Made by a program: the position numbers and the translations under genes. A stretch of DNA of 64,000 bases from Escherichia coli. Its GTDB lineage: Bacteria > Pseudomonadota > Gammaproteobacteria > Enterobacterales > Enterobacteriaceae. Every line of letters starts with the position of its first letter. Positions within the stretch are counted from its first letter, which is position 1. The notes beneath the pieces were generated by a model. That model did not search any database. It saw only the letters and a list, made by a program, of their open reading frames with translations, and was not told the origin of the DNA. Of this stretch, positions 60,568 to 60,849 are shown in pieces. The stretch is from NCBI RefSeq assembly GCF_036507355.1, contig NZ_AP027877.1; one strand, 5' to 3'.

Positions 60568-60675
60568 TCAGCCCCAAATCATTGCTGCCCAACGTAGCAA
60601 CAACATAGCGCCACAGATTGCCAGTAGCACCACCACCATCTTCCAGTGTTTTTTATCAAAGCGTTTAGTCGGCAT
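60568..60675 (-). CDS. yniD: Small membrane protein YniD (35 aa)
   Basis: MPTKRFDKKHWKMVVVLLAICGAMLLLRWAAMIWG: positively charged N-terminus plus one transmembrane helix; the ORF-track 72 aa upstream extension is rejected. Confidence 0.7.
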   Translation of the reverse strand: MPTKRFDKKHWKMVVVLLAICGAMLLLRWAAMIWG

Positions 60676-60849
60676 ACCAGTGTCCTGCATATCTCTTGTG
60701 CGTGATAACGGAGTGTAACAAAAGGGACAGGCATCAAGGGATTTTTTGTTATTACAGCCGTCGGGTGGCGTTGTACACCTGATCACTGTTTCTGCGTTTT
60801 ATGAAAAAATAAAATTATGTATCGATATATAAATATCGTAAATAGCTGG

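Follow-up and report, generated by a model that had tools for sequence, protein, structure and literature searches.

Where does translation begin in a short open reading frame (ORF) that offers several in-frame start codons? The question is raised by a 72-codon ORF on the minus strand of a 64,000-nucleotide (nt) stretch of the Escherichia coli contig NZ_AP027877.1, the whole of which we call the window. The ORF occupies 60568..60786, opens with GTG, and translates exactly as quoted in the first-pass annotation, which had proposed that the true gene is yniD, encoding a 35-residue membrane protein, and that the 72-residue call is an over-extension. An inner ATG at 60675..60673 opens the shorter frame, which with its stop codon spans 60568..60675 (minus strand) and corresponds to the final 35 codons of the ORF, MPTKRFDKKHWKMVVVLLAICGAMLLLRWAAMIWG. 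A third in-frame candidate, the ATG at 60690..60688, had been overlooked; it sits on the mapped mRNA and would give a 40-residue form (MQDTGMPTKRF...). We conclude that the feature is very probably the known E. coli gene yniD with its 35-residue start. The segments in question are:

60568..60675, minus strand: yniD coding sequence (CDS), 35 codons plus a TGA stop, with the product MPTKRFDKKHWKMVVVLLAICGAMLLLRWAAMIWG.
60676..60786, minus strand: upstream extension of the 72-residue ORF, 37 codons from the GTG at 60786..60784, read here as non-coding DNA with the yniD promoter and 5′ untranslated region (UTR).
60688..60690, minus strand: alternative in-frame ATG, five codons 5′ of the annotated start, which would give a 40-residue form.

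The gene, its 35-residue product, and its start are already known, and both RefSeq and a curated family model have them right. Of 5426 complete E. coli genomes, 5416 matched a 551-nt query spanning the locus, where RefSeq labels the gene “yniD: small membrane protein YniD.” Both in K-12 and in the strain that is 100% identical over this query, the RefSeq CDS (WP_001142445.1, 108 nt) corresponds to window 60568..60675, and the same 108-nt call recurs in eight further genomes, which brings the E. coli genomes examined to ten. Against the curated NCBIfam equivalog NF041491 (“small membrane protein YniD”), the 35-residue form scores 85.7 bits (cut-off 40). The match covers positions 1–34 of this 34-position profile, equivalent to residues 2–35 of the short form and 39–72 of the long form, and the first 37 residues of the long form gave no family match in NCBIfam and Pfam. 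Nearly all of the protein-search matches P0001–P0031 bear the precomputed Pfam accession PF28032.1; from these labels a Pfam family for YniD apparently exists, and the Pfam-A copy that we searched did not return it for the 35-residue protein. The gene order fits as well. YdiY and PfkB are encoded downstream of yniD in nearly all Enterobacteriaceae loci, and ThrS upstream wherever the locus or contig is long enough; the conserved order thrS, yniD, ydiY, pfkB is found in the window and in the RefSeq records, with espL1 inserted. The RefSeq annotation, the family model, and the one-helix structure prediction described below agree on a 35-residue product, a predicted single-helix membrane protein, as the first-pass annotation had suggested.

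That annotation also held that a sequence-only view could not settle which start is used. This was too pessimistic, as a comparison of related genomes settles the start almost completely. A scan of one genome per species across Escherichia, Citrobacter, Enterobacter, Lelliottia, Kluyvera, Yokenella, Trabulsiella, Rahnella, Pantoea, and Erwinia provided 80 loci, 79 of them usable for the start-codon comparison; promoter and Shine-Dalgarno (SD) motifs were counted over 82 loci. In 77 of the 79 loci, the position of the E. coli ATG in the alignment is occupied by a start codon, which is GTG in the Pantoea and Erwinia loci and ATG in those of Enterobacteriaceae and Rahnella. An SD-like motif precedes it at the equivalent place in 75/82. 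An in-frame stop lies no more than 11 codons upstream of this conserved start in 39/79 loci, and 38/79 have no in-frame start between the upstream stop and the conserved one. All 44 distinct orthologous proteins are 35–37 residues long. The two loci without a start codon at the aligned position are those of Citrobacter sp. NCU1 (L022, 2001..2003), which has ATT for ATG, and Pantoea rodasii (L079, around 2001), which has a 1-nt shift in a poly-A run just 3′ of the GTG. Either case could reflect real decay, a sequencing error, or a rare start codon.

The short frame itself evolves as a coding sequence. The ratio of nonsynonymous to synonymous differences per site (pN/pS) is 0–0.04 within Escherichia and 0.15 when summed over 75 unique orthologous sequences with the window sequence as reference. 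Differences at the three codon positions number 443/217/1208, with synonymous sites near saturation, and by these counts strong purifying selection acts on the 35-codon frame. Residues M1, K9, L17, I20, C21, A23, R28, W29, A30, A31, I33, and W34 are invariant among the orthologues. The selection bears on a 23-residue, helix-only peptide that could start at the internal Met13 (ATG 60639), a codon that is conserved in nearly all loci and shows some pairing with the anti-SD sequence (listed below). However, residues 1–12 are also under purifying selection, with K9 invariant and H10, W11, and K12 nearly so. Translation of these residues is the sole explanation for this, and the conserved SD motif and start codon are those of the upstream position. 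We therefore give the 23-residue peptide practically no chance.

No sequence relationship links the genera 5′ of the conserved start, and the GTG at −37 codons is limited to typical E. coli. Translation from this codon would yield a membrane-anchored protein with a cytoplasmic, Cys-rich, and possibly metal-binding domain, a reading that we consider highly improbable. The frame is open and the GTG present, and the N-terminal half of the 72-residue form is indeed Cys-rich and non-hydrophobic, as had been noted: residues 1–37 are hydrophilic (grand average of hydropathy, GRAVY, −0.78) and include four Cys at positions 4, 11, 20, and 23, the last two within a CPFC motif. Four Cys in 37 codons are somewhat unusual, being reached in 1.3% of shuffles and exceeding the count in 98.7% of them. 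Moreover, no stop interrupts the extension in any of the nine typical E. coli genomes sampled whose upstream region is undisrupted.

The open run of 37 codons is, however, no more than expected by chance. Shuffles of the same 111 nt are stop-free in 15% of cases, and at least 37 open codons upstream are also found in 11/79 orthologous loci from other species, whereas in most genera stops close the frame. A homology search with the 72-residue ORF matched the extension to nothing but near-identical Escherichia DNA. Within E. coli, six of seven distinct polymorphisms in the extension alter the amino acid, one of them replacing Cys20 with Arg, and the promoter-proximal 51 nt are invariant in the sampled genomes. 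Two zinc-finger candidates were rejected: PF04071 (zf-like) and PF06221 (zf-C2HC5) gave weak, sub-threshold matches of 13.7–14.2 bits against cut-offs of 25.8–27 (E 0.04–0.06). Zinc-binding ligands were likewise dismissed, given the lack of Cys conservation outside E. coli and the Cys20 to Arg change in one E. coli strain. An AlphaFold single-sequence model of the 72-residue form assigns the N-terminal half a predicted local distance difference test score (pLDDT) of 53–64, which is weak evidence either way.

In lineages without espL1, thrS lies ∼300 nt upstream of yniD and is transcribed divergently. E. coli carries the 1.9-kb espL1/arpB inserted upstream, and nothing in the espL1-less lineages corresponds to the sequence beyond about −75. 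The distal part of the 72-residue frame, which borders this E. coli-specific insertion, is therefore young DNA.

Transcript mapping in K-12 places the GTG outside the mRNA. Kim et al. 2012 (PMC3415461, Table S1) list a single transcription start site (TSS) for K-12 yniD (b4535), at 1803161 on the plus strand, with 29 reads and a 5′ UTR of 28 nt. Their 51-nt upstream-plus-TSS string has one exact match in the window, 60703..60753 (minus strand), so that the TSS corresponds to 60703 and the GTG at 60786 lies 83 nt upstream of the mRNA 5′ end. The transcript start is organized as follows:

60676..60703, minus strand: 5′ UTR, 28 nt, with the TSS at the A at 60703, 28 nt 5′ of the ATG.
60712..60720, minus strand: extended −10 element TGTTACACT (TGn plus TACACT), ending 8 nt 5′ of the mapped TSS.
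60683..60686, minus strand: SD motif AGGA, 7 nt upstream of ATG 60675, giving the best anti-SD duplex of the four candidate starts.

A TGnTAnnnT motif occurs 37–45 nt before the start codon in 54/82 loci, including nearly all Enterobacteriaceae. In the window, TGTTACACT is part of the extension, and the supposed Cys-rich domain therefore contains the yniD promoter. The codons TTT TGT TAC ACT (“FCYT”) are the −10 element in translation, and one of the four Cys codons (TGT, Cys23) is the TG of the conserved extended element. This accounts for a similarity among over-extended protein database entries, whose N termini are unrelated to one another save for FCYT: the stretch alone looks conserved in Escherichia extensions because it is a translated promoter element. 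One such entry is a 63-residue “transmembrane anchor protein” from E. albertii (P0003), for which the gene caller picked an upstream in-frame start and whose last 35 residues are YniD. Because its GTG lies upstream of the promoter and has no ribosome-binding site, we regard the 72-residue ORF as a chance open frame over promoter and 5′ UTR DNA. The over-extension suspected at first is thus borne out by the annotation, the family model, the comparative genomics of 79 loci, and a K-12 TSS 3′ of the GTG. Calculated anti-SD duplexes differ among the four starts as follows:

GTG 60786, minus strand (72 residues): +0.2 kcal/mol, no SD.
ATG 60690, minus strand (40 residues): −2.9 kcal/mol.
ATG 60675, minus strand (35 residues): −4.7 kcal/mol.
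Internal ATG 60639, minus strand (23 residues): −3.3 kcal/mol.

The mapped mRNA does carry the ATG at 60690, 13 nt from its 5′ end, and the 40-residue form could arise there, either as the predominant product or in minor amounts beside the 35-residue one. This ATG is present in all ten typical E. coli sampled with the native upstream region, and an in-frame ATG at −5 is also found in Lelliottia/Huaxiibacter and in four of five Rahnella loci. Its SD pairing, however, is no better than random and ends about 2 nt from the ATG, a spacing that is too short. Divergent Escherichia lineages (L003 and L005) carry ACG in its place and E. albertii lacks the codon, in many genera a stop precedes the conserved start by 1–8 codons, and the downstream Met is the first residue in both the curated annotation and the family model. 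We consider the 40-residue form very unlikely and retain ATG 60675 as the start.

Several points weigh against this assignment. The SD motif of E. coli is moderate, its −4.7 kcal/mol comparing with −5.0 or better in ∼14% of random 20-mers, and the TSS is that of K-12 in the conditions of a single study. In the window strain, the same-strand upstream gene espL1 is intact, and a minus-strand terminator scan found no terminator-like site between espL1 and yniD; read-through transcripts that include the GTG could therefore exist. Translation of the 72-residue form would then require initiation without an SD in addition to the read-through. A promoter-like site at 60842..60814, which would put the GTG on an mRNA, was rejected, as matches of the scan are no commoner than in shuffles and the K-12 table has the TSS at 60703 alone. 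Initiation-site ribosome profiling or N-terminal peptide data for yniD were not retrieved from the literature covered, which did not extend to the primary small-protein papers, and the supplement of Stringer 2021 makes no mention of the gene. Lastly, the functional part of our reading (topology and partner binding) is drawn by analogy. A lineage-specific, N-terminally extended YniD, made via read-through to GTG 60786 in E. coli lineages with an intact, expressed espL1 or via ATG 60690 on the normal mRNA, seems very unlikely to us. If it were real, such a proteoform would carry a Cys-rich cytoplasmic extension that arose recently from promoter DNA.

The 3′ end of the transcript is marked by a further feature:

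60524..60548, minus strand: terminator hairpin common to the convergent yniD (minus) and ydiY (plus), followed on the minus strand by AGAUAAUUUU.

The terminator scan flagged this hairpin on the plus strand. On the minus strand, its RNA has a folding energy of −13.1 kcal/mol (z −2.96), which none of 200 shuffles equalled, and the 5′ UTR/start region folds weakly (−4 kcal/mol, z +1.46). An Rfam search of the region returned no family, the sole match being a chance snoRNA match inside espL1. A monocistronic mRNA of ∼190 nt would start at 60703, driven by the extended −10 promoter TGTTACACT (60720..60712), and end at the hairpin (60548..60524). Ribosomes would bind AGGA at 60686..60683 and initiate at ATG 60675 to give a product of 35 residues, a basic dozen followed by one helix to the C terminus. 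These steps, from promoter to product, are strongly supported where they are not demonstrated outright.

The composition of the product matches the first-pass description of a basic N terminus followed by a hydrophobic helix. Residues 38–49 of the 72-residue form are strongly basic (GRAVY −2.1; K4, R5, K8, K9, and K12 against D7 in short-form numbering), and residues 50–72, equal to segment 13–35 of the short form, are hydrophobic (GRAVY +2.13). AlphaFold2 with an alignment of 44 sequences predicts one helix comprising residues 3–34 (mean pLDDT 83). A search of solved structures found no counterpart, the sole match, to a transmembrane helix in integrin beta-3 (E 0.16), being due to chance. Hemm and colleagues reportedly saw chromosomally tagged YniD (sequential peptide affinity tag, SPA) by immunoblot in 2008. 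A 2025 review states that YniD was detected by mass spectrometry and credits this to Treitz et al.

By the positive-inside rule and by comparison with other E. coli small membrane proteins, YniD would reside in the inner membrane with its N terminus in the cytoplasm and almost no periplasmic tail. Insertion probably follows the completion of translation, because the length of YniD is close to that of the ribosome exit tunnel. Judging from such small proteins, the invariant face of the helix (I20, C21, A23, R28, W29, A30, A31, I33, and W34, ending in RWAAMIW) most likely binds a larger membrane protein, against which it would pack and whose activity it would modulate. We offer this mechanism as a whole tentatively, as possible rather than probable. 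The literature searched yielded no partner or phenotype of YniD, and a PADLOC search for a defense-system role gave no match.

Two natural knock-outs of yniD were encountered. In E. coli TUM14664 (L090, locus 877..893), an IS3-family element lies 7 nt upstream of the ATG and has removed SD and promoter, and in E. coli Z22-6 (L089), Trp11 is replaced by a stop codon. A long-term stationary-phase evolution study describes an IS2 insertion in the arpB/yniD intergenic region. The upstream neighbor in the window, espL1 (60850..62748, minus strand), is an intact ORF of 632 residues with a ShET2 enterotoxin N-terminal domain and ankyrin repeats. RefSeq records a frameshift in this gene both for K-12, where it is arpB, and for strain 2013C-4465 (T5 versus T4 at window 62550). 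When the comparison is extended to 6.5 kb, the strain with a 100% match to the 551-nt query shares no more than 98.9% identity with the window.

Outside the Enterobacteriaceae, an uncharacterized ORF of ∼80 residues (MNNRKPRRPHGRWTYYIMYEDILWPCPVRWEWENGYGGWLPFYYSP...) adjoins yniD in all 24 Rahnella and Pantoea/Erwinia loci, for instance at L058 2232..2474 (plus strand) and L072 2214..2456 (minus strand), and also in L059, L060, and L062–L082. It is located about 100–130 nt downstream of yniD in most loci and is transcribed in the same direction in Rahnella and convergently in Pantoea. The ORF has no Pfam or NCBIfam match and is absent from the Enterobacteriaceae loci and the window; it could point to a functional partner of YniD. 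About 30–60 nt before the yniD GTG, the Pantoea/Erwinia loci (L064–L082) also have a conserved hairpin, GATGCGCC-nnnn-GGCGCATC, with a T-rich run on its 3′ side. At L072, the one locus with its ORFs listed, an osmC-like ORF of 142 residues (named by eye) ends about 90 nt upstream of yniD, and the hairpin is probably the terminator of this osmC-like gene. Given the upstream hairpin, yniD of Pantoea/Erwinia may have its own promoter or depend on read-through.

The main value of the analysis is the correct annotation, and little goes beyond it. Nevertheless, yniD is a clean example of how longest-ORF calls mislead for small genes, as its own promoter lies within the extension. The functional leads that emerged are the invariant RWAAMIW helix end and the constant neighbor in Erwiniaceae and Yersiniaceae, and nothing else.

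Compared with YniD of E. coli K-12 (b4535), the 35-residue sequence, the promoter string, and the TSS context are identical, and the gene likewise lies between espL1/arpB and ydiY. The upstream neighbor is an intact 632-residue espL1 ORF in the window strain and the arpB pseudogene in K-12; otherwise, nothing of substance differs. Several single-helix small membrane proteins of E. coli bind larger ones, namely AcrZ (AcrB), MgtS (MgtA), CydX (cytochrome bd), and KdpF (KdpABC). Unlike these four, to which it has no sequence relationship, YniD is in no operon with a candidate partner. Like them, it has fewer than 50 residues, a short charged end and, by prediction, one hydrophobic helix, a small transcript of its own, and a conservation pattern centered on the helix.
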